Origin: an uncultured Chloroflexia bacterium
Lineage (GTDB): Bacteria > Chloroflexota > Limnocylindria > Limnocylindrales > CSP1-4
NCBI GenBank assembly: GCA_963768655.1
Contig: CAVYIM010000007.1
Span: forward strand, 160,001-224,000
Direction of reading: 5' to 3'
DNA length: 64,000 nucleotides
The stretch's first letter is position 1, and every line of letters starts with the position of its first letter. The notes beneath the pieces are model-generated. The model saw only the letters and a list, made by a program, of their open reading frames with translations. It was not told where the DNA came from and did no database searches. Position numbers and translations under genes: made by a program. Shown here piece by piece: positions 5,791 through 41,063 of this stretch.

Positions 5791-5908
5791 ATACACGGGG
5801 TGCATATCCATCCGCATCGCAGTCAGCGTATGCACGTCCGGACCAGCCTGACCCGGTCCGCTGGTATACTTCTGGGCGTGCCCGCAAGCCCAGAAGAGTA
5901 GTGGAGCC

Positions 5909-6982
5909 ATGTCCCGAGAAGCTCAACCGCTGACCGTCGCGGTCGTCGGCGCCACTGGAGTCGTCGGACGGACGATGATTCAAGTCCTCTCCGAGCGGCA
6001 CTTTCCCGTCGGTGAGCTTCGCTTGCTCGCCTCCGGCCGATCCGCCGGATCGACCGTCAGCGCGGACGGGCGGACTCTCACGGTGGACGAGGCGGTCCCC
6101 GAGGCCTTCGACGGTGTGGACATCGCCCTCTTCTCGGCCGGGACGGACGTGTCGAGGCAGCTGGCCCCTGAGGCGGCGAAGCGGGGCGCCACCGTCATCG
6201 ACAACTCCAACGCCTGGCGGATGGATGCCGCGGTGCCGCTCATCGTCAGCCAGGTGAACCCGGAGGACGGGGAGTGGCACGAGGGCATCGTCGCCAACCC
6301 CAACTGCTCGACGATGCAGCTCGTGCCCGTTCTGATGGCGCTGCGGGATACGGTCGGCCTGGAGCGAGTCGTGGTCGACACGTATCAGTCGGTTTCGGGC
6401 ACCGGCGCCGAGGCGCTGGCCGAGCTCGAGAACCAGATCCGCGCTCACGTCGCGGGGCAGCCCAAAGTCGCGTCGGTCTACCCGCACGCGATCGCGTTCA
6501 ACGCGCTGCCCGAGATCGACGTCTTCCTCGACAACGGCTACACCCGCGAGGAGTGGAAGGTCGTCACCGAGAGCCGCAAGATCCTCCATCTGCCGGAGTT
6601 GCGGGTCTCGTGCACGGCTGTCCGTGTGCCCGTCTTCGTGAGCCACTCGGAAGCGGTCCACGTCGAGACGACCCGCCCCATAACTCCGGACGAAGCGCGG
6701 CGAGCCTTCGCGGCTGTCCCCGGCGTCGTGGTGATCGACGATCCGGCGAGCCACGCTTATCCGATCGCCACTCAGGCCGCCGGCTCGGACGACGTCTTCG
6801 TCGGCCGAGTCCGAACCGATCCCTCGGTCGAGCGCGGCATTGCGTTCTGGGTGGTCAGCGACAACCTGCGTAAGGGCGCCGCCACGAACGCCGTGGAGAT
6901 CGCCGAGACCCTTCTGGAGCGTGGCTGGGTGCAGGCACGCTCCCGACGGGCGGCCCCGAGCGGGGCCGGGGGAGCCTCATGA
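5909..6982 (+). CDS. asd: Aspartate-semialdehyde dehydrogenase
   Basis: VVGATGVVG, ANPNCST, SDNLRKGAATNAV; extended -10 TGGTATACT upstream. Confidence 0.97.
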   Translation: MSREAQPLTVAVVGATGVVGRTMIQVLSERHFPVGELRLLASGRSAGSTVSADGRTLTVDEAVPEAFDGVDIALFSAGTDVSRQLAPEAAKRGATVIDNSNAWRMDAAVPLIVSQVNPEDGEWHEGIVANPNCSTMQLVPVLMALRDTVGLERVVVDTYQSVSGTGAEALAELENQIRAHVAGQPKVASVYPHAIAFNALPEIDVFLDNGYTREEWKVVTESRKILHLPELRVSCTAVRVPVFVSHSEAVHVETTRPITPDEARRAFAAVPGVVVIDDPASHAYPIATQAAGSDDVFVGRVRTDPSVERGIAFWVVSDNLRKGAATNAVEIAETLLERGWVQARSRRAAPSGAGGAS

Positions 6983-7737
6983 GGGATGCCGAGCGTCAGG
7001 CGGCGCTCGACGCAATAGGGGCGGAGGTCGCGACGTGCGCGCGCTGCCGCCTCCACGAAGGTCGGACGCGGGCGGTGCCGGGGGAGGGCACGGCTGCAAC
7101 CGAAGTCATCTTCGTGGGCGAGGGCCCGGGCTTCAACGAGGACCGCCAGGGCCGCCCGTTCGTTGGTCAGGCCGGCTCGCTCCTCGACGAGTTGCTGGCC
7201 TCGGTCCTGTGGTCGCGTGACGAGGTCTTCATCACCAACGTGGTCAAGTGCCGCCCGCCCGGCAACCGCGATCCGGAGCCCGACGAGATCGCGGCCTGCG
7301 CGCCCTACCTGACGCGCCAGCTCGAGGCTCTCGATCCGGCTCTCGTGGTCACGCTCGGCCGTTTCTCGATGGCTCGTTTCAGCCCCGGCGCGCGGATTGG
7401 GCAGGTCCATGGCACGTTCCGGCCCGCCGACGCCGCGTCCGGCGCGCCGAAGGCGCTGACCTTCGCGATGTACCATCCGGCGGCCGCGCTGCATCAGGGG
7501 TCGCTGAAACAGACCCTGGTCGCCGACATGCAGGGCGTGCCCGGCGCGCTGACCGAGGCCCGCGCCCTGCGGGCCGCCCGCCAGGACCAGGATGAACTAT
7601 CCGCAACGAATGCCCCGGCGCTGTCTCCGGTCGCTGAGGCCGCCACGGCCGCCACAGCGAACCCGGAATCTTCACGGGCCGTTGCCGCCGAGCCGGGCGT
7701 CGAATTCGACCCGACGGCCCAGCTCGGCCTCTTCTAG
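6979..7737 (+). CDS. Uracil-DNA glycosylase family 4 (Fe-S)
   Basis: CARC, GEGPG, GRPFVG, NVVKCRPPGNR, YHPAA. Confidence 0.93.
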   Translation: MRDAERQAALDAIGAEVATCARCRLHEGRTRAVPGEGTAATEVIFVGEGPGFNEDRQGRPFVGQAGSLLDELLASVLWSRDEVFITNVVKCRPPGNRDPEPDEIAACAPYLTRQLEALDPALVVTLGRFSMARFSPGARIGQVHGTFRPADAASGAPKALTFAMYHPAAALHQGSLKQTLVADMQGVPGALTEARALRAARQDQDELSATNAPALSPVAEAATAATANPESSRAVAAEPGVEFDPTAQLGLF

Positions 7738-7775
7738 GATGGACAGAACCGTTACGTCCCGTCACTCGAGCACCG

Positions 7776-9444
7776 ATGCCTGAATCACAGATACCGCTTC
7801 GAATCATCCCCCTCGGAGGCGTGGGGGAGATCGGCAAGAACATGTACGTCTTCGAGTATGGCGACGACATCGTCGTCGTCGACTGTGGACTCATGTTCCC
7901 CGATGAGGAGATGTTCGGGATCGATCTGGTGATCCCCGACGTCACCTACCTGCGCGAGAACCGAGAGAAGGTCCGCGCCTTCCTGATCACTCACGCCCAC
8001 GAGGATCACGTCGGCGGGCTGCCATACGTGCTCCCGTACTTCCCCGGCGTGCCCGTGTATGCGTCAACGCTGGCCCGCGGCCTGCTCGGCATCAAGATCA
8101 AGGAGCACAAGCTCCACAACAACCCGCTCTTGCCCCTGGATCCGGGCGACAACCTCGAGATCGGGCCGTTCCGCGTCGAGCCGTTCCGGATCAGCCACTC
8201 GAATTCCGGACGCGATGGGAATCGCCCTCCACACGCCGATCGGGACGGTCGTCACGACGGGCGACTTCAAGTTCGACCACACGCCGGTCGACGGCCGCCG
8301 GTCCGACTTTGCCATGCTTTCGCGCCTGGGCGAGGACGGCGTGGTCTGCCTGCTCTCAGATTCGACTCGGGCCGAGAGTCCCGGCTACACGCTCTCTGAG
8401 CGGACCGTCGGTGAGACCTTCCGCGAGATCATGGAGCCGCTGGACGGCCGGGTCATCGTGGCCACGTTCGCCAGCAACATCGCCCGCATCCAGCAGGTCA
8501 TCGACGCCGCCGCGACGTTCGACCGCAAGGTCGCGGTCGTGGGCCGCTCCATGGAGCAGAATTTTCGCATCGCGACTGACCTTGGGTACCTGACGTATGC
8601 CCCAGGCCAGATCGTGGGCAAGGATCAGATCGGGTCCACGGCGGCGGACAAGATCGTCATCGCCACGACCGGCGCCCAGGGGGAGCCAATGGCCGGCCTG
8701 GCCCGCATGGCCAACCGCGACCACCGCTTCGTTGAGATCCAGCCGGGCGACACCGTAATCGTCAGCGCCAGCCCGATCCCCGGCAACGAAGAGTATGTGG
8801 CTCGGACCATCGACAACCTCTTCAAGGCCGGCGCCAATGTCTACTACCACACCGTCAAGCACGCCCACGTTTCGGGCCACGCCAGCCAGGAAGAGCTGAA
8901 ACTGATGCTGGGCCTGACCAGGCCGAAGTACTTCATCCCGATTCACGGCGAATTCCGGATGCTTGTCCAGCACGGCCGCCTCGCCGTGGAGACCGGGGTG
9001 GCCCCTGAGAACGTGTTCATCATCGAGAACGGCCAGGCCATCGAGTTCTTCGCGGACGGCACCGCCCGGCGCGCCGCCCCCGTAACCTCCGGCTACGTGC
9101 TCGTGGACGGGCTGTCCGTCGGCGACGTCGGCGAAGTGGTCCTGCGCGACAGGCGGGCGCTCGCCAGCGACGGCATGTTCATCATCGTCGTGACCGTGGA
9201 TAAGCAGACCGGGAAAGTGGTGGCTCGGCCCGAGATCGTGACTCGCGGCTTCATACACGGGAACGAGCGAGACCCGCTCATCGACGGGGCGGTGGAGCAC
9301 ATCATGGCCGCGGTCGAGAGCCCGGGCGATCGGACCAGCGAGGTGGGCCTTCTCAAGAGCCAGATCAAGGACGAAGTGTCGCGGTATCTCTACGAGCAGA
9401 CGCGGCGGCGGCCGCTCGTCTTCCCGGTCGTGGTGGAGGTCTGA
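7776..9444 (+). CDS. rnj: Ribonuclease J, split by one extra A at ~8202 (probable sequencing error)
   Basis: PLGGVGEIGKN and THAHEDH in ORF 7776; TGDFKFD and HVSGHA in ORF 8059; removing one A restores ISHSIPDAMG. Confidence 0.93.
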
Positions 9445-16577: not shown

Positions 16578-18497
16578 ATGTCGATGAGTGAAGGCCAGAG
16601 CGCCACCGTCACGGTCGGCGAGGCTATGGCCGAAGCGTTGGCTCGGGCCGGCGTGAAGATCGCCTTCACTGTCCCCGGCGAGAGTGTTCTTGGACTACTC
16701 GACCGCCTGGCTGCACACAAGATTCGGGTTGTCACGGCGCGTCACGAGGGAGCGGCGTCATTCATGGCCGAAGCAGTCGCCCAGCTGACCGGACGGCCGA
16801 CGCTCGTCCTCGCCGGGCGGGCGCCCGGAGCGGCCAACCTCATGATCGGTCTGCAGGCCGCCCAATCCGATTCGGCGCCCGTGATCGCGATCGTCGGCCA
16901 GGTGAGGCGACAGGTTCGGGGACGCGAGGCCTTCCAGGAGATGGACCTGGTCCGGACCTTCGAGCCCATCGTCAAGTGGGCGGGCGAGGCGAAGGACGCC
17001 GGCGATGTGGCCGTGATGGTTGAGAAAGCCGTCACGACCGCGACGAAGGGCCGGCCCGGGCCTGTGCTCCTATCTGTGCCGGAAGACGTGCTCGACCTGC
17101 CCGCGGAGGGCGGACAGGTAGTCGGTCTTCATCTGGAGCACCCCGCCGATCCGGATCAGGTCCTCGTCCGGAAGATCCTCCATGTCCTCCTCGGGGCGCA
17201 GCGGCCGCTCATCGTCGCCGGCGCCGGAGTTCTGAGGAGCCGCGGCACGGACGCCCTGGTCCGTTTCGCCGAAACAGTTCAGGTCCCAGTCGTGGCCTCG
17301 TGGCGTCGAGGTGACGTCTTCCCCAACGACAACGCCCTCTATCTGGGCATGACCGGTCTCGGGTCTCCGGCGAGTGTCAGGACGAGGATGGAGCAAGCGG
17401 ACGCGCTGCTCGTGCTGGGCTGCCGGATGGGTGAGATGACGACATACGGGTACGCGATTCCCGTCGGCGGGACACGCTGGGCGCAGGTCGATGTGGATCC
17501 GCGAGGGGCGGCGCTGGCCAATCGCCCGGAGATCGTGCTGGCTGCCGACGCGTCGGCGTTCCTGCGGATGACCCAGCGGGTGCTCGGGAATGCGGCACTC
17601 GACGCTGCGACTCTTGATGCTCGGCGCCTCCGGAACGTAGCCGACCGGGAGGCCTTCGAGATGGCATCGACGGTCGACGCGGAGCCGTGGGACGGGCCGG
17701 GTGTGCACCCAGGCCGGGTCGTTGCGACCCTCGGGCGCGTCCTGCCGGCCGACTCGATCGTTGCCACCGATGCCGGCGATTTCGGGACCTGGGCCGCCCG
17801 CGGATACAGGTTCCGCCGGCCCGGAACCTTCCTCGGCTCGACCTCGGGAGCGATGGGGTTCGGGCTGCCGGCAGCGATAGGGGCGACGCTGGCCCGGCCC
17901 GGCAGGCTCGGTGTGGCCCTCGCCGGTGACGGCGGTTTCGCGATGACGATGGCGGAACTGGAGACGGCGGTACGAGAGCGGGCGCGCGTCATCGCGATCG
18001 TCTTCGACAACGCCCGCTACGGGACGATCTGGCGGCACCAGGCGCTCCGTGGCGGTCCGAGTGGCCCCGTGGCCAGGCTCGGCGCCGTGGACTTCGCTGC
18101 GATCGCCGAGGCGTGCGGGGCGCTTGGGCTGTCGGTCAATTCCGATGACGAGTTCGAGCCGGCGCTGCGGCAGGCTCTGGAAGCCGGACGGCCGGCGCTT
18201 CTGCACCTGGCCATGGATGCGCACTGGACCACGCCCGACGGTATCCCTTCATCCGACGAGGCTCCGGTGACGCTCGAGACGCGAATGGAGGCGGAAGACG
18301 AGGGAGGCGGCGCCCTCGAAAGCGCGGCTGAAGAGCTTGTCGAGGCCTATGTCGAAGTTGCCGTGGAGGCGGCGCTCGAAGCCACCCTCGAGGAGGAGCT
18401 CGAAGTCGAGCTCATCGAGGCGGCCGAAGGACTCGCCGACGAACTCGCCGCGGCCCGTCCGATGGACGCGCCGCAGGAGCTCCCTCCGGCAGAGTAG
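16578..18497 (+). CDS. Thiamine-diphosphate-dependent enzyme (acetolactate synthase-like) with acidic C-terminal tail
   Basis: VPGES, RHEGAA, FQEMD, GDGGF...FDN ThDP motif. Confidence 0.88.
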   Translation: MSMSEGQSATVTVGEAMAEALARAGVKIAFTVPGESVLGLLDRLAAHKIRVVTARHEGAASFMAEAVAQLTGRPTLVLAGRAPGAANLMIGLQAAQSDSAPVIAIVGQVRRQVRGREAFQEMDLVRTFEPIVKWAGEAKDAGDVAVMVEKAVTTATKGRPGPVLLSVPEDVLDLPAEGGQVVGLHLEHPADPDQVLVRKILHVLLGAQRPLIVAGAGVLRSRGTDALVRFAETVQVPVVASWRRGDVFPNDNALYLGMTGLGSPASVRTRMEQADALLVLGCRMGEMTTYGYAIPVGGTRWAQVDVDPRGAALANRPEIVLAADASAFLRMTQRVLGNAALDAATLDARRLRNVADREAFEMASTVDAEPWDGPGVHPGRVVATLGRVLPADSIVATDAGDFGTWAARGYRFRRPGTFLGSTSGAMGFGLPAAIGATLARPGRLGVALAGDGGFAMTMAELETAVRERARVIAIVFDNARYGTIWRHQALRGGPSGPVARLGAVDFAAIAEACGALGLSVNSDDEFEPALRQALEAGRPALLHLAMDAHWTTPDGIPSSDEAPVTLETRMEAEDEGGGALESAAEELVEAYVEVAVEAALEATLEEELEVELIEAAEGLADELAAARPMDAPQELPPAE

Positions 18498-34677: not shown

Positions 34678-35394
34678 CTACCAGTCCATCGTTGATGGCG
34701 TCGTCATTGCGCGCGCGGTTGCGCGCCGCAGATATCCCCTTACACCCGGCCCTCGCCGTTGATCTCGCCGGAGCCCGCTCGGGTAGTTGCGGCGCGCAGG
34801 TCGACCGTTCGACGCCGGCGCGCCAGCGCCGAAGCTACCCGGCACGTAGCCGAGATACATGGCGCCCGACGCGAACTGCCGCGTCTCGGTGAGCCGGAGG
34901 CCGACCGGTGTCTCGAGCCCGGGAAAGAACGGCCGGCCCGCCCCGAGGATGACCGGGTGGACGACGACGCGGTATTCGTCGATCAGGCCGCGCCGGACGA
35001 ACTGGGCGGCCAGCGTCGGCCCGCCGACGCTCAACTCGCCGGGAAATTCGGCCCGCAGCCGGGCCAGCACGTCGCCCACGTCGCCGCTTACGAGCCGGCT
35101 GTTCCCCTCGACGCCGGCGAGGCTTGTCGAGAAGACGATCTTCGGCGTCGCGTTCCAGACCCGGGCGAAGTCCAGCATGTAGTCGGTCGCAGACGGGTCG
35201 GACTCCGCGGTCGGCCAGTATGCGTTCATGACCTCATACAGTCGCCGCCCGTAAAGGAACGCATCCGTCTCGCGGGATCGATCGGTGAACCAGCGGTGGG
35301 TCTCTTCGTCGACGATCGTCCAGTCGAGGGAGTGGTCGGGAGTCTCGACATAGCCGTCGAGCGAGACGTTCATCAAGTAGACCAGCTTGCCCAT
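34678..35394 (-). CDS. RibD C-terminal / dihydrofolate reductase family protein
   Basis: MNVSLDGY, LYGRRLY, GGPTLA, GLIDEY, PVILGAG; extended non-conserved C-tail. Confidence 0.88.
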   Translation of the reverse strand: MGKLVYLMNVSLDGYVETPDHSLDWTIVDEETHRWFTDRSRETDAFLYGRRLYEVMNAYWPTAESDPSATDYMLDFARVWNATPKIVFSTSLAGVEGNSRLVSGDVGDVLARLRAEFPGELSVGGPTLAAQFVRRGLIDEYRVVVHPVILGAGRPFFPGLETPVGLRLTETRQFASGAMYLGYVPGSFGAGAPASNGRPARRNYPSGLRRDQRRGPGVRGYLRRATARAMTTPSTMDW

Positions 35395-35552
35395 CGTCGC
35401 CTCCGATGCAGTGCGTGCCGTTCCCCTTATCTTGACGAACCCGGGCGGACGGCTCATCGCTCCGTGGCCGGCGTTGCGGGTGACGCGAGACGTGCCCGGA
35501 CGAGTCGCCGGAGCCGCGCCGACACCACCGACCCCGCGCGCATAAGCGACCG

Positions 35553-35822
35553 ATGCGCGCGTCGTTTCGGCAGCGAAGCATGGGATCGGCGATGAACGAG
35601 CCCGCTACGTGGTGGAGCGGTGCGCATGCCCGTTCTATCCGACAGATGCCGGAGAAGGGGAGCGGGACCTCGTGATCGTTCCTCGGCCCCGATCAACGCG
35701 GAGTGCCACTCGAGGTTGTCGCCGTCGAGACCGAGGGCGGCGATCTGCTGGTCACCCACGCGATGCGATTGAGGGCCAGCTATGGAGAGACGTGCGTGTG
35801 GGTGATGAGATGCCGAGAGTGA
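35553..35822 (+). pseudogene. Frameshifted small toxin-like gene (BrnT/RelE-like)
   Basis: SAAKHGIGDERARYVVE in one frame, shift at ~35678 to FLGPDQRGVPLEVVAVETEGGDLLVTHAMRLR*; no in-frame start; overlaps RHH gene. Confidence 0.55.
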
Positions 35823-36034
35823 AGTCCACGGGCACTTTTCCCAGGAGTGGCCGCCGGCTGTCTGGGGACGATCTCGACCCTTCCTTGAGCGCTGAGCCGG
35901 GTGCGCATTCCCCTCGCATCGAAGCCCGGGTCCCCGAAGCGCTTCATCGCCGCGTCTCGGCGCGCGCCGCCAGCGAAGCCAAAGGCGTGAGCGCCGCATT
36001 GCGGCAGTTGCTCGAGGAGTGCGCGGAGGGCTGA
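35810..36034 (+). CDS. Ribbon-helix-helix (CopG-like) antitoxin candidate
   Basis: PRIEARVPEALHRRVSARAASEAKGVSAALRQLLEE fits the RHH pattern. Confidence 0.6.
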   Translation: MPRVKSTGTFPRSGRRLSGDDLDPSLSAEPGAHSPRIEARVPEALHRRVSARAASEAKGVSAALRQLLEECAEG

Positions 36035-36088
36035 CAGGGACCCAACCGTTGGCGGAGTGGTCGCTGACCTGTCGAGCGGTCGTCTGAC

Positions 36089-36140
36089 GACCATTTCGTG
36101 ACTGGCCATGAATCTTGGTCATCGGTGACCATCTCGTGAC
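36089..36140. repeat. 14-bp direct repeat GACCATYTCGTGAC
   Basis: GACCATTTCGTGAC at 36089-36102 and GACCATCTCGTGAC at 36127-36140. Confidence 0.7.
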
Positions 36141-36343
36141 CAGCCTCTTGGTGGCCGCGCGGTACATCACCGTGGCGTGAGTAGTTCACACCGAACCTGA
36201 ATCGACGGGACTGATCGGGAAGTAGCCCGGTATCATCCTGACATGGACAGAGGGCGAGTAATGGGGGGACGGGGGCGGTCGAAGGCGGCCAAGGACGCTA
36301 AGTCGCTTGTGCCGGCCAAGCTTCTTGGGCATAAGGTCGGGAA

Positions 36344-37096
36344 ATGATCCGCAAGATCCACGGTTTCGTCGTGGCCGCCATCGCCGTTGCTGCGATCGCG
36401 AGCTTCTTGACCGTCTGGGTGCTTGCTTGGACTTACGGCGGGGACGCAACCGGTGGCTTTGAGCGCGCAGGCCACTTCTACATCTGGAATCGCCCCCACA
36501 CCGGCTACCAGGAGGTTTCGGAGACTATCTGGCAGCTGAGCTTGCTCGCGAACCGCACTTTGCCGATCCTGTGGCCTCTGATGCTCCTTGCCGGTGGCTC
36601 TTGGATCGTGGCGACCGAGAACAGGGTCCTCAATGGGACTGCCGCCCGAGAAATCGATAGTCGAGTCAGGTTCGTTAGGCGTTCGGGGCCATTGCTCTGT
36701 TCGCGGCGCCTCTCGGGCTCAAGCGGCCGAGTCTCAGTGTGGGGTCCGCTGTTCCTCGTCGAGGTCTATCCCGCCGGCGTGTTGGTCAAGCCCTGGTTGG
36801 TTCGGCGACACGCAGTTCTTGCGTCGGAGATCCAAGACGTGGTGGTCGGCAAGGAGCGAGGTCATGAATACCTCGACATCCACCACTCCGGTGCGGGCAT
36901 GCCCTCGCCAGTCAGGCTGTGGGAATCGCCTGGCGCTCCCCTAAGCGCGGCGATACGCACGATCGCCCAGGGACCGGCGGCTATGCAGCATCCAATACTG
37001 CCCACGCAGCAGCCCGCCTCCTGGCGACGACTTAGCTTCGCGATCAGGATCAGCCAAGAAGACGATCCGGCTTCTGCCAATCGAGACAAGCCGTAG
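36344..37096 (+). CDS. Hypothetical membrane protein
   Basis: 250-aa ORF, two hydrophobic helices, codon usage looks less GC3-biased than core genes. Confidence 0.65.
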   Translation: MIRKIHGFVVAAIAVAAIASFLTVWVLAWTYGGDATGGFERAGHFYIWNRPHTGYQEVSETIWQLSLLANRTLPILWPLMLLAGGSWIVATENRVLNGTAAREIDSRVRFVRRSGPLLCSRRLSGSSGRVSVWGPLFLVEVYPAGVLVKPWLVRRHAVLASEIQDVVVGKERGHEYLDIHHSGAGMPSPVRLWESPGAPLSAAIRTIAQGPAAMQHPILPTQQPASWRRLSFAIRISQEDDPASANRDKP

Positions 37097-37165
37097 GCCA
37101 TTCTTCCGCAACGGTTGATGCGCTAGTGACCCACCGATGGCGGCTCGACAGACCAGGTTCGCCCG

Positions 37166-37193
37166 AACGGACATAACCTCTCTTATCGGAAGT
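37166..37193 (-). other. dif: dif-like XerC/XerD recombination site
   Basis: Minus strand ACTTCCGATAA-GAGAGG-TTATGTCCGTT: 11-6-11 with ATAA/TTAT core; core genes converge on it. Confidence 0.72.
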
Positions 37194-37371
37194 GCCGAGG
37201 CTAGGCGACGCTCGGGAATTGGCCCATCGACGCGCAGTCGAACCAGAGATCGCCCGGGCACACACCGGCGGCAATGGCAGGTCGCCATCGGCGAAGGAAT
37301 GCGTCAGCGGGCTTGCGCGTGGCGGCCTTCATAGCTGACTGACTTGGAAACGGCTGGCCCGGGGAATCCAG

Positions 37372-37405
37372 GCGGCCCGCCGGCAAAGGGCGCTCGGCGG
37401 GCCGC
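37372..37405. terminator. Perfect 11-bp GC hairpin downstream of the short ncRNA
   Basis: GCGGCCCGCCG (37372-37382) / CGGCGGGCCGC (37395-37405); no U tract. Confidence 0.45.
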
Positions 37406-37434
37406 GAGTGGCGGAGTTGTGGCAGATATGGAAC

Positions 37435-37516
37435 GCCCGGAGGAACCGCGACCCCGCATCGTTCGGCCGATCCGAGAATCGGTCGAGTCGTTCGGTATTT
37501 CGTGGCCCCTCCGGGC
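37435..37516 (-). ncRNA. Candidate short structured RNA (~82 nt), paralog of the 38.6-38.9 kb RNA
   Basis: 5' GCCCGGAGGGGCCACGA pairs with 3' UCGCGGUUCCUCCGGGC; apical UCGACCGAUU-CUCG-GAUCGGCCGA hairpin; promoter directly upstream. Confidence 0.62.
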
Positions 37517-37669
37517 AGGATTGACTGTAGTCGTTGGGCCGCGGCGTGCCAACCGGCTTGTCCACTTTTCCCTGAAGATCGCCGAGGGATGCGGAGTACT
37601 GTCCACGGGCCGTGCACACCGACCGGCGCGACCGACCTGCGTGTCGAAGGCGAACAGAACACCCGTTCT
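37517..37669 (-). promoter_or_regulatory. Sigma70-type promoter, two DnaA-like boxes and a LexA-like box (copy 1)
   Basis: -10 TACAGT 37524-37529; -35 TTGGCA 37547-37552 (17-bp spacer); TTGTCCACT 37558-37566; CTGTCCACG 37599-37607; AGAACACCCGTTCT 37656-37669. Confidence 0.65.
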
Positions 37670-37677
37670 GGTGGCCG

Positions 37678-38463
37678 TCAGGACGGAAGGACGCGTCGCC
37701 GGCGGTGCAGCGTCTTGATGCGAAGCGTCAGCACCAGGCGGAAGGCTTCGAGGAAGATGGCCATGCTCATCTTGGACTGGCCGGCACGACGCTCTTCGAA
37801 CGTGATCGGCACCTCCAAGACGCGCGCGCCCGCGAGGCGAGCCTGGAAGGTTGTCTCGATCTCGAAGGCGTATCCGCCGGCGTGGAGCCGGTCGAGGTCG
37901 ATGGCGCGGAGCACGGAGGCGCGAAAGGCCTTGAAGCCGCCCGTGAGGTCGCGATATGGCATCAGGAGCACGACTGCGGCGAACACGCTGCCACCGAGGC
38001 TGATCAGGCGGCGAAAGATGTTCCAGCGAGGGATCTGCCCGCCCCGGACGTAACGCGACCCAAGGACCAGATCGGCGCGATCCGCCGCCAGCGGCTCTAG
38101 AAGCGCCGGCAGGAACCTGACCGGGTGGCTGAAGTCGGCGTCCATCTGCACGACCACGTCCGCGCCCCGGGCGAGCACGTCGCGGAAGGCGGCCACGTAG
38201 GCCCGTCCCAGCCCCTGCTTGGCCTGGCGGTGCAACACCGCGATCTGTGGGCATTTGCGAGACAGCTCGTCGGCGAGCTCGCCGGTGCCGTCCGGGGAGC
38301 CGTCGTCGACGATGAGCACGTTCGCCTGGGGCACCGTCGCGAGAATGGCATCGGCGATCGGCCCGACGTTCTCGCGTTCGTTGAACGTTGGAACGACAAC
38401 CCAGATGCGGGACGGCGCGGCGGAGATCTGGCTCGGAGTCGCGGACGGGGCGGTGGGCGGCAT
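37678..38463 (-). CDS. Polyprenol monophosphomannose synthase-like GT2
   Basis: VVPTFNERENV, VDDGSPDGT, QMDADFSH, GSRY, DLTGGFK. Confidence 0.92.
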   Translation of the reverse strand: MPPTAPSATPSQISAAPSRIWVVVPTFNERENVGPIADAILATVPQANVLIVDDGSPDGTGELADELSRKCPQIAVLHRQAKQGLGRAYVAAFRDVLARGADVVVQMDADFSHPVRFLPALLEPLAADRADLVLGSRYVRGGQIPRWNIFRRLISLGGSVFAAVVLLMPYRDLTGGFKAFRASVLRAIDLDRLHAGGYAFEIETTFQARLAGARVLEVPITFEERRAGQSKMSMAIFLEAFRLVLTLRIKTLHRRRRVLPS

Positions 38464-38603
38464 CGGCTTCCTGGCTGCGAAAAGGGGTCGCGGCCGAGGA
38501 TACCCTCTGTCTCCCCTACCCTGCTGGCCGCAGCGCGCCGTGCCGGGCCGGACTCGGGTCTCAACGTGGGCCCGCGGGCCGGTTGGGCTTGCTGCCGTCG
38601 GAT

Positions 38604-38887
38604 ACAAAGAAACGCCCGAAGGAACCACTTCGATCGGACTGCGGTTTCGCGCGTACCGGCCGCTTTGACCACCGCAAGCAAGAGGTCCGAGGACTCCTCG
38701 CTCGAACGGCGACCTGCGCTCCGGCCACTGCCGGAACTGCCACCAACCCCTCTACATTCCACCTTCCGCGGCTACGATCTGCGATCCGGGCCGAGAACCG
38801 TTGCGGGCTCCTGGTCTTTCACGTAGATCGGTCACCGTTTCCGTTGAAACCGCTGAGTCGGTGTCGATCTCGCTGGCCCCTTCGGGC
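38604..38887 (-). ncRNA. Candidate long multibranched RNA (~275-285 nt)
   Basis: 14-bp closing stem GCCCGAAGGGGCCA / UGGUUCCUUCGGGC with G-U pairs that work only on the minus strand; several internal helices; U-rich tail GUUUCUUUGU; -10 upstream. Confidence 0.68.
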
Positions 38888-39040
38888 AAGACAGACAATA
38901 GGTCCGGGCCCCCGCTGGGAGAAGTGGCTTATCCACCACTTTCGGTGCCTGGGAAGACAGTTTTGGCAGTTGTCCACTTCCTGCCAACAAGGGTAGGTCG
39001 GCGCGAACCCCTAGTGCGGACGAGTGAGAACGGTTGTTCT
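38888..39040 (-). promoter_or_regulatory. Promoter, two DnaA-like boxes and a LexA-like box (copy 2)
   Basis: -10 TATTGT 38895-38900; TTATCCACC 38929-38937; TTGTCCACT 38970-38978; AGAACGGTTGTTCT 39027-39040; same offsets as copy 1. Confidence 0.65.
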
Positions 39041-39100
39041 AGTACTCCCCCGCCCTGCCGGGTCCGTCCGCGGGCCTTTGACGCGCTTCCCAGTGGACCA

Positions 39101-40441
39101 TCAGGCGTCCTCGGACGCGGCGCCGGCGGGGGTTCCGTTGTCGGCTCGGAGCAATTCGCGGTAGCGCGCGGCGACTGCCTTCAGCTCGCCCGCCAGCGGC
39201 GGGCTGACACGTCCCCGGACGCGCACGTCGAAGGACCGATAGTCGAGATCCACGGTGCCACGCTCGCGGATGCGGGCGATCAGCTCCCCGGCGCGGTATG
39301 GGATCGCCACGTCCACGTCCACCCAGAGCGACGCCAGCAGGGCGGACAGCTCGGCCCTCAGCGTCTCGAGGCCGTATCCGGTCACGGCCGAGATGAGGAC
39401 CGTGCCCGCGATCGCCGGCGCAGGCGTGTCGCCGTCGCGAGCCGCCGCCTCGATCAGGTCGGCCTTGTTGAACGCCACGAGGCGCGGCTTGTCGCCAGCA
39501 CCGAGCTCCTCGAGCACGGTCTGGACGGTCGCGCGATGCTCGGCGAAGTGGCGGTCCGAGGCGTCGACGATCTCGAGCAGGACGTCGGCGCGTGTGACCT
39601 CCTCGAGCGTCGCCCGGAATGCGTCGACGAGCTGATGGGGCAGCTTGTGGATGAAGCCCACGGTGTCAGTGACGATCGCGGTCTGGCCTTCGCCCAGCTT
39701 GACCTGGCGGGACGTCGGATCGACGGTCGCGAACAGCCGGTCCTCGGCCTTGACGACCTCCTGGCCGACGAGCGCGTTCAGCAGCGTTGACTTGCCGGCG
39801 TTGGTGTAGCCGACGATGGCGACCGTCGGGATGAGCCTCCGGTCGCGCGCGCGGGTCGCCGTGCGGCGCTGCTCGGCCACCTGGTCGACGCGCTCCTTGA
39901 GCTTCTTGATCCGTTCACGCACCAGGCGCCGGTCGGTTTCGAGCTGCGATTCGCCGGGGCCCCTCGTGCCGATGCCGCCGCCGGTGCGCGAGAGGTGCGT
40001 CCACATCCGAGTCAGGCGCGGCAGCTGGTATTCGAGCTGCGCCAGCTCCACCTGGAGGCGGCCTTCGTGCGTCTGGGCGTGCAGGGCGAAGATGTCCAGG
40101 ATCAGCCGCGATCGGTCGATCACCTTGGTCCTGACGGCTTCCTCGAGGGCGCGCTGCTGGGCGGGTGACAGCTCGTCGTCGGTGATCAGGAGCGTGTAGC
40201 CGGTCTCTGATCGGGCGGCCACCAGCTCGTCGACCTTGCCCTTGCCGACGTAGAAGTTGGGGTCGACATGGCGGCGGTTCTGCCACTCGGCGCCGACAAC
40301 CTCGGCGCCGGCGGTGTCGGACAGGCTGGCCAGCTCCGCGATCGACTCCTCCGCCGTCCAGCCGGGATCGTCGCCGGTGTCGACCGCGACGAGAAAGGCG
40401 CGCTCCACCGGCGCGGTCAGATCGATCATGTTCCTGGTCAT
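39101..40441 (-). CDS. hflX: GTPase HflX
   Basis: [36 protein letters not shown]. Confidence 0.97.
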
Positions 40442-40631
40442 CACGGGCAGGATAGCCGAACGGCCGGCTGGCACGGTGCGGCTGAACGGCGGCCGGCCGA
40501 TGGCGACCGGCCCCGACGGCGGCGACCGGTGCGCCCGCCCGGCGCGAGCCTATACTCCGTCAGCTGGCTGCGTCCCCAGCACCGAGGTCCGTCACACCCC
40601 TCGGCGATCGGCACAAGGAGGAGAACAGCAG

Positions 40632-40994
40632 ATGGCGGCCCGGACCGTGCGCGACTTCCAGGTTGGATTCGACATCGCGCCACTTGTGGATGCGTGGGCG
40701 CATGCGAATCACTATGGCTTCCGTGGCGTCTCGCCCGACGGGACCCGCACCTACCAACGCGGCAACGGATTCCTTACGGGCGCCATGCCCATGACGGTCC
40801 GTCAGGCCGGCCCGGCCGTTCACCTGGAAGCCTGGATCCACGCCACGCTGCTTGCGCGCATCTGCGCCGTCTTCCTCATCCCGAGCGACATGGGCATCGA
40901 GTCGGGCGGTGTGAGGGGCGTCCTGCCGCGGTCGATGGCGCGCGGATCGGTCAACAACCTGCTCGCGCAGCTCGGCCAGCCGCCGATCGCATAG
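40632..40994 (+). CDS. Hypothetical protein
   Basis: AGGAGG RBS, 120-aa ORF between miaA and hflX on the opposite strand. Confidence 0.7.
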   Translation: MAARTVRDFQVGFDIAPLVDAWAHANHYGFRGVSPDGTRTYQRGNGFLTGAMPMTVRQAGPAVHLEAWIHATLLARICAVFLIPSDMGIESGGVRGVLPRSMARGSVNNLLAQLGQPPIA

Positions 40995-41063
40995 TCGCGG
41001 GCCGCCGGCGGGCGACGGGCCTTGAGCGGCGAGGTCGGCGACCACACCCGGGTCGGGCGTGCG

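Follow-up and report, generated by a model that had tools for sequence, protein, structure and literature searches.

Locus and gene context

The window analysed here is a 64,000-nt stretch of a contig from an uncultured bacterium (NCBI GenBank assembly GCA_963768655.1, contig CAVYIM010000007.1, positions 160,001 to 224,000). Near its middle lies a run of minus-strand genes in the order ruvB, tgt, recA, recX, rny, a PHP-domain gene, miaB, miaA, hflX, RNA A, GT2 and RNA B, in which RNA A and RNA B denote the two RNA genes described below. From ~30 kb to ~53 kb, the called genes that flank the RNA locus are on the minus strand, bar one small plus-strand gene. The protein-coding genes next to the RNAs are:

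39101-40474, minus strand: hflX (Pfam GTP-bdg_N, GTP-bdg_M and MMR_HSR1), the conserved neighbour upstream of the RNA cluster
37678-38463, minus strand: GT2 glycosyltransferase gene (Pfam Glycos_transf_2, E = 4.3e-27), between RNA A and RNA B

The ATG at 38463 was taken as the start of the GT2 gene, which belongs to the context of the RNAs and lies outside them.

The best 80 loci with relatives of the HflX protein (70-96% amino-acid identity) were all from Chloroflexota metagenome-assembled genomes, most of them labelled Limnocylindria or Limnocylindrales and a few carrying other submitter labels. To judge from these relatives, the host is a member of the phylum Chloroflexota, class Limnocylindria, and not an actinobacterium. 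The comparative sample consisted of these 80 loci, with ~9 kb per genome, and the 64-kb window.

Several features of the surroundings were recorded. The 590-nt gap between miaA and hflX (40475-41063) has a sole long ORF (40560-41045, minus strand, 161 aa), which was Pfam-negative at 1e-5. The region on the 3' side of RNA B (35454-37434) has a lower G + C content (0.656 over 34-38 kb) and contains the Pfam-negative ORFs 35454-36170 (minus), 36344-37096 (plus) and 36941-37288 (minus). In the 80 loci (L001-L080, positions ~5900-9300), the genes beside and between the RNA copies differ among genomes and often have cell-envelope functions (GT2, PMT_2, GtrA, GT87, AT3-SGNH, GH25 with CWB2, Rce1-like) or encode a PALP enzyme. 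It appears that a variable region adjoins the RNA cluster.

A conserved ORF of ~190 aa (165-208 aa) is located between hflX and the first RNA copy in 48 loci (e.g. L035:5359-5925) and was considered as a linked protein partner of the RNAs. It had no match in Pfam or NCBIfam. Its AlphaFold model (pLDDT 94.3) is nearly all beta, with PDB entry 2h1t (DUF1089, PA1994) as the best match (E = 1.8e-7, TM 0.59). The candidate was dropped because a DUF1089-like fold has no known link to RNA or DNA and because the ORF is absent from the window (tblastn).

Structure and conservation of RNA A

The spacer between hflX and GT2 is conserved over its whole length in ~19 close relatives (69-86% identity), and part of it recurs in many loci and, within the window, at 37458-37565. 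The RNA encoded in this spacer and its tail are:

38887->38614 (38614-38887), minus strand: RNA A, 274 nt, whose 5' end GCCCGAAGGGGCC pairs with its 3' end GGUUCCUUCGGGC (fold, 18 orthologues of 269-277 nt, covariation)
38604-38613, minus strand: U-rich tail GUUUCUUUGU, terminator-like, 3' of the closing helix (terminator scan)

The initial annotation had proposed a multibranched non-coding RNA of ~275 nt at this site. All the sequence strings that it quoted are present, on the minus strand (the reverse complement of 38604-38887), and the 14-bp closing stem, the U-rich tail and the location downstream of hflX were correctly described. The minimum free energy of the minus strand was -132.4 kcal/mol (z = -2.90), as good as that of 1 in 200 dinucleotide shuffles; the plus strand had a z-score of -1.32, with 19 of 200 shuffles as good. 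A terminator-like site was called at the 3' end of RNA A, and the distance from there to the GT2 start is 140 nt.

The structure is also conserved in homologues. An alignment of 18 long-form orthologues (alignment A2, mean column identity 84%) yielded a multibranched consensus of 74 pairs in 12 helices, without a central bubble, in which 96.9% of the cells were paired versus 36-49% with slid partners. Thirty-two cells had changed on both sides, a number reached by none of 500 shuffles, and 11 pairs were compensatory, a number reached by 12 of 500. The consensus includes the previously proposed helices GGAGCC/GGUUCU and UUCCGG/CCGGAG and the hairpin AGCGAGG...GUC-CUCG-GAC, whose loop alternates between CUCG, UUCG, CUUG and GCAA among orthologues (UNCG/CUUG type versus GNRA type). 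The helices AGAUCG/CGAUCU, CACCG/CGGUG, GUUUC/GAAAC and UGCGGU/ACCGCA fared less well: they are feasible in most sequences (85.6% paired) and have no covariation support, with 1 compensatory pair, which 451 of 500 shuffles reach. In a conserved alternative, GAUCG pairs with CGAUC near the 3' end, CACC with GGUG, and alignment columns 39-44 with part of the purine-rich core; the core, which had been described as apparently unpaired, is therefore partly paired.

Translation of the region as a 61-aa ORF (38561-38746) had been named as an explanation that would compete with an RNA gene. This ORF lacks conservation: of the 18 orthologues, 3 retain its TTG start, 8 contain stop codons in frame and others carry frameshifts. 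A segment of RNA A (38702-38723) is complementary, at 21 of 23 nt, to the mRNA of a minus-strand gene with a RibD_C domain (34678-35457) at 34790-34812 (blastn within the window, E = 0.033).

A family of RNAs downstream of hflX

With iterated nhmmer searches, a unit of ~144 nt was recovered in 114 copies, distributed over 68 of the 81 sequences (67 of the 80 loci, and the window). All 114 share the strand of hflX and lie downstream of it, at 1-3 copies per locus; in six of the 13 loci without a copy, the sequence extends less than 750 nt past hflX. The window contains two copies only, both at the hflX locus (blastn, covariance model R1), namely RNA A and a shorter paralogue:

37516->37435 (37435-37516), minus strand: RNA B, an 82-nt single long hairpin after the GT2 gene (nhmmer)

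RNA B folds with -46.9 kcal/mol (z = -4.83; none of 200 shuffles as good) and was scored by model R1 with 78.1 bits on the minus strand versus 35.8 bits on the plus strand. Thermodynamics alone do not discriminate between its strands (-46.9 versus -48.7 kcal/mol). In the 675 kb of the loci and the 64-kb window, model R1 recovered only copies of the family and no copy without a promoter, as read by eye from the result tables. One extra R1 row in the window (17497-17569, plus strand; 15.8 bits, E = 0.13) keeps the AGGGGC...GUUCCU pairing, lies inside a 639-aa ORF (16578-18497) and is probably a chance match. In the 64-kb window, neither blastn nor R1 found a further copy that would point to a repeat or MITE. 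As for a plasmid or phage origin, searches of the available collections gave no match.

RNA lengths were measured from the 5' GCCCG to the 3' partner GGUUCCUYCGGGC, allowing up to 2 mismatches; the 3' partner was found in 113 of the 114 copies, and the remaining copy is cut by a contig end. The lengths fall into the following classes:

78-88 nt: 86 copies, single hairpins
118 nt: 3 copies
145 nt: 6 copies
269-277 nt: 18 copies, long form

The 9 copies of 118-145 nt have a two-arm interior, and the clade of the window has a multibranched insertion of ~190 nt. The proposal of a ~275-nt non-coding RNA thus holds in so far as a structured RNA is real, but the RNA is not a lone molecule; it is the expanded form within a family that numbers 114 copies. 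In the loci L061, L063 and L066, which have three copies each, two identical two-arm copies of 145 nt flank an 86-nt copy within ~1 kb, the product of a recent event in which the entire unit, promoter included, was duplicated in tandem.

The 10 nt that follow the closing helix contain 5.8 T on average in copies with a full 10-nt tail. The next feature after a copy (n = 111, crude gene calls) was a co-directional gene a short distance away in 72 cases, another copy in 18, a convergent gene in 13 and a contig end in 8; the genes after the copies belong to unrelated families (PALP, GT2, PMT_2, GtrA, GT87, AT3-SGNH, Rce1, FAD enzyme). Each RNA might be conceived as a cis-acting leader, in which a regulated promoter and a strong terminator hairpin would gate read-through into the gene behind, often an envelope gene, by attenuation or protein-mediated antitermination. 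The 72 co-directional genes, the many envelope enzymes among the neighbours (GT2, PMT_2, GtrA, GT87, AT3-SGNH) and the composition of the RNA, a hairpin followed by a U tract, would all agree with such a leader. However, the downstream genes have no family in common, 18 copies precede another copy with a promoter of its own and 13 precede a convergent gene, and RNA A is 140 nt away from the GT2 start. Moreover, the hairpin begins with the first base of the transcript and so leaves no room for an alternative antiterminator fold, and we consider a leader function unlikely. RNA A is also not simply the 5' UTR of the GT2 gene, a counter-explanation raised in the initial annotation; it has a predicted promoter and terminator of its own, and the copies are followed by genes of unrelated families.

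Structure of the short forms

The short members form a single long hairpin with a stable tetraloop cap (CUUG, UUUA, GCAA or CUCG). In 80 distinct short-form sequences, 94.3% of the cells were paired versus 32-49% with slid partners, and 209 cells had changed on both sides versus 69 ± 6 in shuffles, none of 500 of which reached this number. MAFFT did not align the short forms reliably around the middle of the hairpin, where the subfamilies differ; 25 pairs were modelled, of which 14 are compensatory. The closing helix comprises 12-13 bp of nearly invariant sequence with a tandem G·U, both pairs of which are present in all 80 short forms, and it covaries at position 6 (A-U 50, G-C 9, G-U 15). 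The RNA strand of six representative short and mid-length members had z-scores of -3.5 to -8.0, and R1 scored full-length sense matches in the loci with 47-91 bits and antisense matches with 29-47 bits. The RNA was assigned to the hflX strand because of the invariant G·U pairs, which would be A·C mismatches on the other strand, and because of the U tail and the promoter. In the aligned sequences, pairing is under selection throughout; the sequence itself is selected only at the terminal helix, at the apical hairpin that many copies have and at the promoter.

These observations bear on the possibility that the RNAs are trans-acting base-pairing sRNAs, with the variable interior of each paralogue serving as a seed for different mRNA targets. 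Multiple copies, diverged interiors and a box-controlled promoter are reminiscent of paralogous sRNA sets elsewhere, and the complementarity of RNA A to the minus-strand gene at 34790-34812 (21 of 23 nt, E = 0.033) would provide one such target. The RNAs are almost fully paired under stable tetraloop caps, however, and no conserved single-stranded stretch was seen in the family; conservation resides in the terminal duplex and not in the loop, and the single complementarity is marginal. Base pairing as the mode of action is therefore rather doubtful.

Promoter unit and upstream boxes

The RNAs are preceded by a unit in the order GTGGAC, 5 nt, GTGGACAAC, ~30 unconserved nt, GAAAcuc-GTGGATAAG, a -35-like hexamer, a spacer, TANNNT, 6-7 nt and GCCCGRAGGGGCC. 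Alignment of the 114 copies shows conservation of the boxes and of the -35 and -10 elements, but not of the spacer of 16-18 nt. The elements upstream of RNA A are:

38983-38988, minus strand: box 1, GTTGGC, degenerate (GTGGAC in most copies), starting 11 nt before box 2
38969-38977, minus strand: box 2, GTGGACAAC (alignment and motif enrichment)
38928-38936, minus strand: box 3, GTGGATAAG, abutting the -35 (conserved block in 114 copies, motif enrichment)
38918-38923, minus strand: -35-like element TTCTCC, 17 nt upstream of the -10, weak (3 of 6 positions match)
38895-38900, minus strand: -10 element TATTGT, 7 nt ahead of the initial G of the RNA

Those upstream of RNA B are:

37524-37617, minus strand: promoter unit with boxes, -35, 17-nt spacer and -10
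37612-37617, minus strand: box GTGCAC
37598-37606, minus strand: box GTGGACAGT
37557-37565, minus strand: box GTGGACAAG
37547-37552, minus strand: -35 element TTGGCA, followed by a 17-nt spacer before the -10
37524-37529, minus strand: -10 element TACAGT

The -35-like hexamers in the family are TTGCCA, TAGCCA, TTGGCA and similar sequences. The -10 element is TANNNT in 111 of the 114 copies and CATAGT in the other 3, and its distance to GCCCG is 7 nt in 101 copies and 6 nt in 10. A scan of 38300-39300 for consensus promoters called none. Given the position of these elements, the transcript probably starts at or next to GCCCGRAGGGGCC; we infer both its 5' and its 3' end from the sequence.

Each unit has 2-3 boxes in the same orientation, which precede the transcript start by ~100, ~90 and ~45 nt. 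Inside the units, the motif GTGGAYAA was counted 184 times, in every case on the strand of the unit; the remaining 723 kb of the 739 kb contain it 4 times, once in a unit truncated by a contig end. A hairpin TTGGCAG...CTGCCAA in the box 2 region of RNA A was rejected, as its pairing is lost in the orthologues (alignment rows read by eye), and the boxes were therefore taken as DNA motifs. They match the complement of the high-GC DnaA box consensus at 8-9 of 9 positions, with the first T of the full box (TGTGGAYAA) in 39 of the 184 boxes only. A winged-helix response regulator would also fit boxes 1 and 2 at their spacing of 11 nt.

With three DnaA-like boxes per unit in the same orientation and up to three units per locus, the cluster could itself be the functional element, a DNA site for titration, reactivation or replication in which the inverted repeat is incidental or acts as DNA. 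Such an element would not explain why the tandem G·U is kept in 80 of 80 short forms, where the other strand would have A·C, nor the fixed distance of the -10 or a U tail that is present on the RNA strand only; the GC skew, too, shows no switch at 38 kb. A purely DNA-level function is highly improbable. The same absence of a skew switch, together with co-directional genes on both sides, led us to reject a replication origin, and since the called genes that flank the locus between ~30 and ~53 kb are on the minus strand, bar the one small plus-strand gene, the locus is not regarded as oriC.

Search for known RNA families

Rfam 15 gave no matches in the whole window at gathering scores. At E<=10, the two window copies and a three-copy locus gave chance-level rows only, the best of which were P17 (E = 0.55), Sso133 (E = 2.6) and NLPC-P60 (E = 3.7). 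The model of 6S RNA (Rfam RF00013) had no match at E<=10 in 38400-39150, and ARAGORN found no tRNA or tmRNA. No TROVE domain was detected by Pfam among 25 proteins of the window (28-52 kb) and 25 proteins of the loci. A literature search for RNA regulators or small RNA in Limnocylindria found no paper, and the extracts retrieved on 6S RNA with Chloroflexi and on DnaA boxes with sRNA promoters held nothing on the family.

The initial annotation had likened the RNA to the RNA-polymerase-binding RNAs Ms1 and 6S, as an analogue in this lineage or else a new class. The latter half of this suggestion agrees with the absence of the class from Rfam. The former half, in which the RNA would sequester core polymerase or holoenzyme, meets with several difficulties, and at the relaxed threshold of E<=10 no Rfam family was matched beyond chance level. 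In the available excerpts of PMC9130861, 6S RNA is described as a hairpin or rod of ~180 nt with a central bubble that resembles an open promoter, the shortest known form having ~160 nt, and Ms1 as an RNA of ~300 nt with a central bubble and short 5' and 3' terminal hairpins, which in Actinobacteria is located between the genes of a HAD-IB hydrolase and an oxidoreductase and whose homologues can be without detectable sequence similarity.

As in 6S RNA, the 5' and 3' ends of RNA A are paired in a long closing stem, and the gene is a stand-alone structured RNA gene of the abundant type. RNA A also resembles Ms1, as described there, in its size (274 versus ~300 nt), its paired ends and its nature as an intergenic non-coding gene; the possible lack of detectable sequence similarity among Ms1 homologues counts in favour of this reading, too. 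Nevertheless, the family is typically a hairpin of ~82 nt without a bubble and, in its long form, a multibranched RNA of 274 nt, whereas 6S RNA in these excerpts is a bubbled rod of ~160-200 nt; 86 of the 114 members, with 78-88 nt, are below the length given for the shortest 6S RNA (PMC9130861). Ms1, with which the comparison is by description, belongs to another phylum, is flanked by HAD-IB hydrolase and oxidoreductase genes instead of hflX and GT2, and has the central bubble that is missing from the consensus of RNA A, in a family whose members mostly have 78-88 nt. The actinobacterial premise of the Ms1 proposal was wrong, since the best 80 HflX loci are all from Chloroflexota. With a taxon, a neighbourhood and a fold that do not match, and with most members far below the expected length, we retain an Ms1 or 6S analogue as a very unlikely alternative.

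Interpretation

RNA A is, as far as comparative sequence analysis can tell, a real and conserved gene for a non-coding RNA that has a promoter and a terminator of its own, and the unusually long member of a previously undescribed family. It is very probable that the family as a whole consists of real, independently transcribed, structured RNAs. The full reading favoured here, a new Limnocylindria family of independently transcribed structured small RNAs that function by binding protein, is assigned a probability of roughly 0.45.

According to this reading, the transcription of each RNA would proceed from a sigma-70-type promoter (-35-like hexamer, spacer of 16-18 nt and TANNNT -10) and would be set by a DnaA-like factor or a response regulator bound at the boxes, and the transcript would end with GGUUCCUYCGGGC and the U-rich tail. 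The RNAs are probably recognised by a protein via the invariant terminal helix, and they would act in trans as stable stand-alone protein-binding RNAs. The terminal helix with its G·U pairs would be the recognition site and the variable interior a scaffold, which seems to tolerate anything from a 20-bp stem to a branched insertion of 190 nt, by analogy much like the interior of Y RNAs.

If the boxes were DnaA boxes, the hairpin RNAs could be an output of the replication initiator, and the family a class-wide multi-copy module that reports or buffers DnaA activity. The RNA would then be a stable product that binds a partner via the G·U helix, or the locus would be a transcribed DnaA-titration site. 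The literature extracts on DnaA boxes with sRNA promoters contained no report that links replication status to such an RNA, and we regard this variant as quite improbable.

Limnocylindria, which abound in soil, peat and fresh water, have to our knowledge no member that is cultured and genetically tractable; the family offers a handle on regulation in an uncultured lineage. It is unusual in that a gene unit of boxes, promoter, invariant terminal helix and terminator is conserved across the class while the RNA body spans 78 to 277 nt and occurs as tandem paralogues, and in its seemingly fixed chromosomal address beside hflX amid variable, often cell-envelope genes. If the boxes prove to bind DnaA, the family would tie replication control to RNA in a new way. 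The family is also a clean case of a lone 'large ncRNA' that can be an expanded member of a much smaller RNA family.

Comparison with known systems

One resemblance to an Rfam entry concerns the NLPC-P60 motif (RF03033), to whose first 12 consensus positions the apical hairpin GGUGCUUGCAUC of many copies (L061:6164-6255) is identical. The remainder of that model does not fit (17.7 bits versus a gathering score of 53.7, E = 3.7) and the family is not a member of it; the likeness may be due to chance or to a shared small module.

Multi-copy sRNA sets with an upstream activator site include the csRNAs (CiaR), Qrr (LuxO), GlmY/GlmZ (GlrR) and RsmX/Y/Z (GacA), all of which expose single-stranded seed or protein-binding motifs. 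The family shares with them the organisation in paralogous, often tandem sRNA genes with a common promoter and repeated factor boxes, but almost the whole length of its RNAs is paired, and conservation falls on the terminal duplex.

The Y RNAs of the YrlA type have a conserved terminal helix formed by both ends and a variable interior, and sometimes occur as several tandem paralogues; their genes adjoin rsr, which encodes the Ro60/TROVE protein, and they carry a tRNA-like domain. The family differs from them in that no TROVE domain occurs among the proteins scanned, ARAGORN calls no tRNA or tmRNA and Rfam gives no match at E<=10. In its general design, however, it is alike, with a terminal helix of the two ends, a variable interior, tandem paralogues and, as proposed here, probable binding by a protein.
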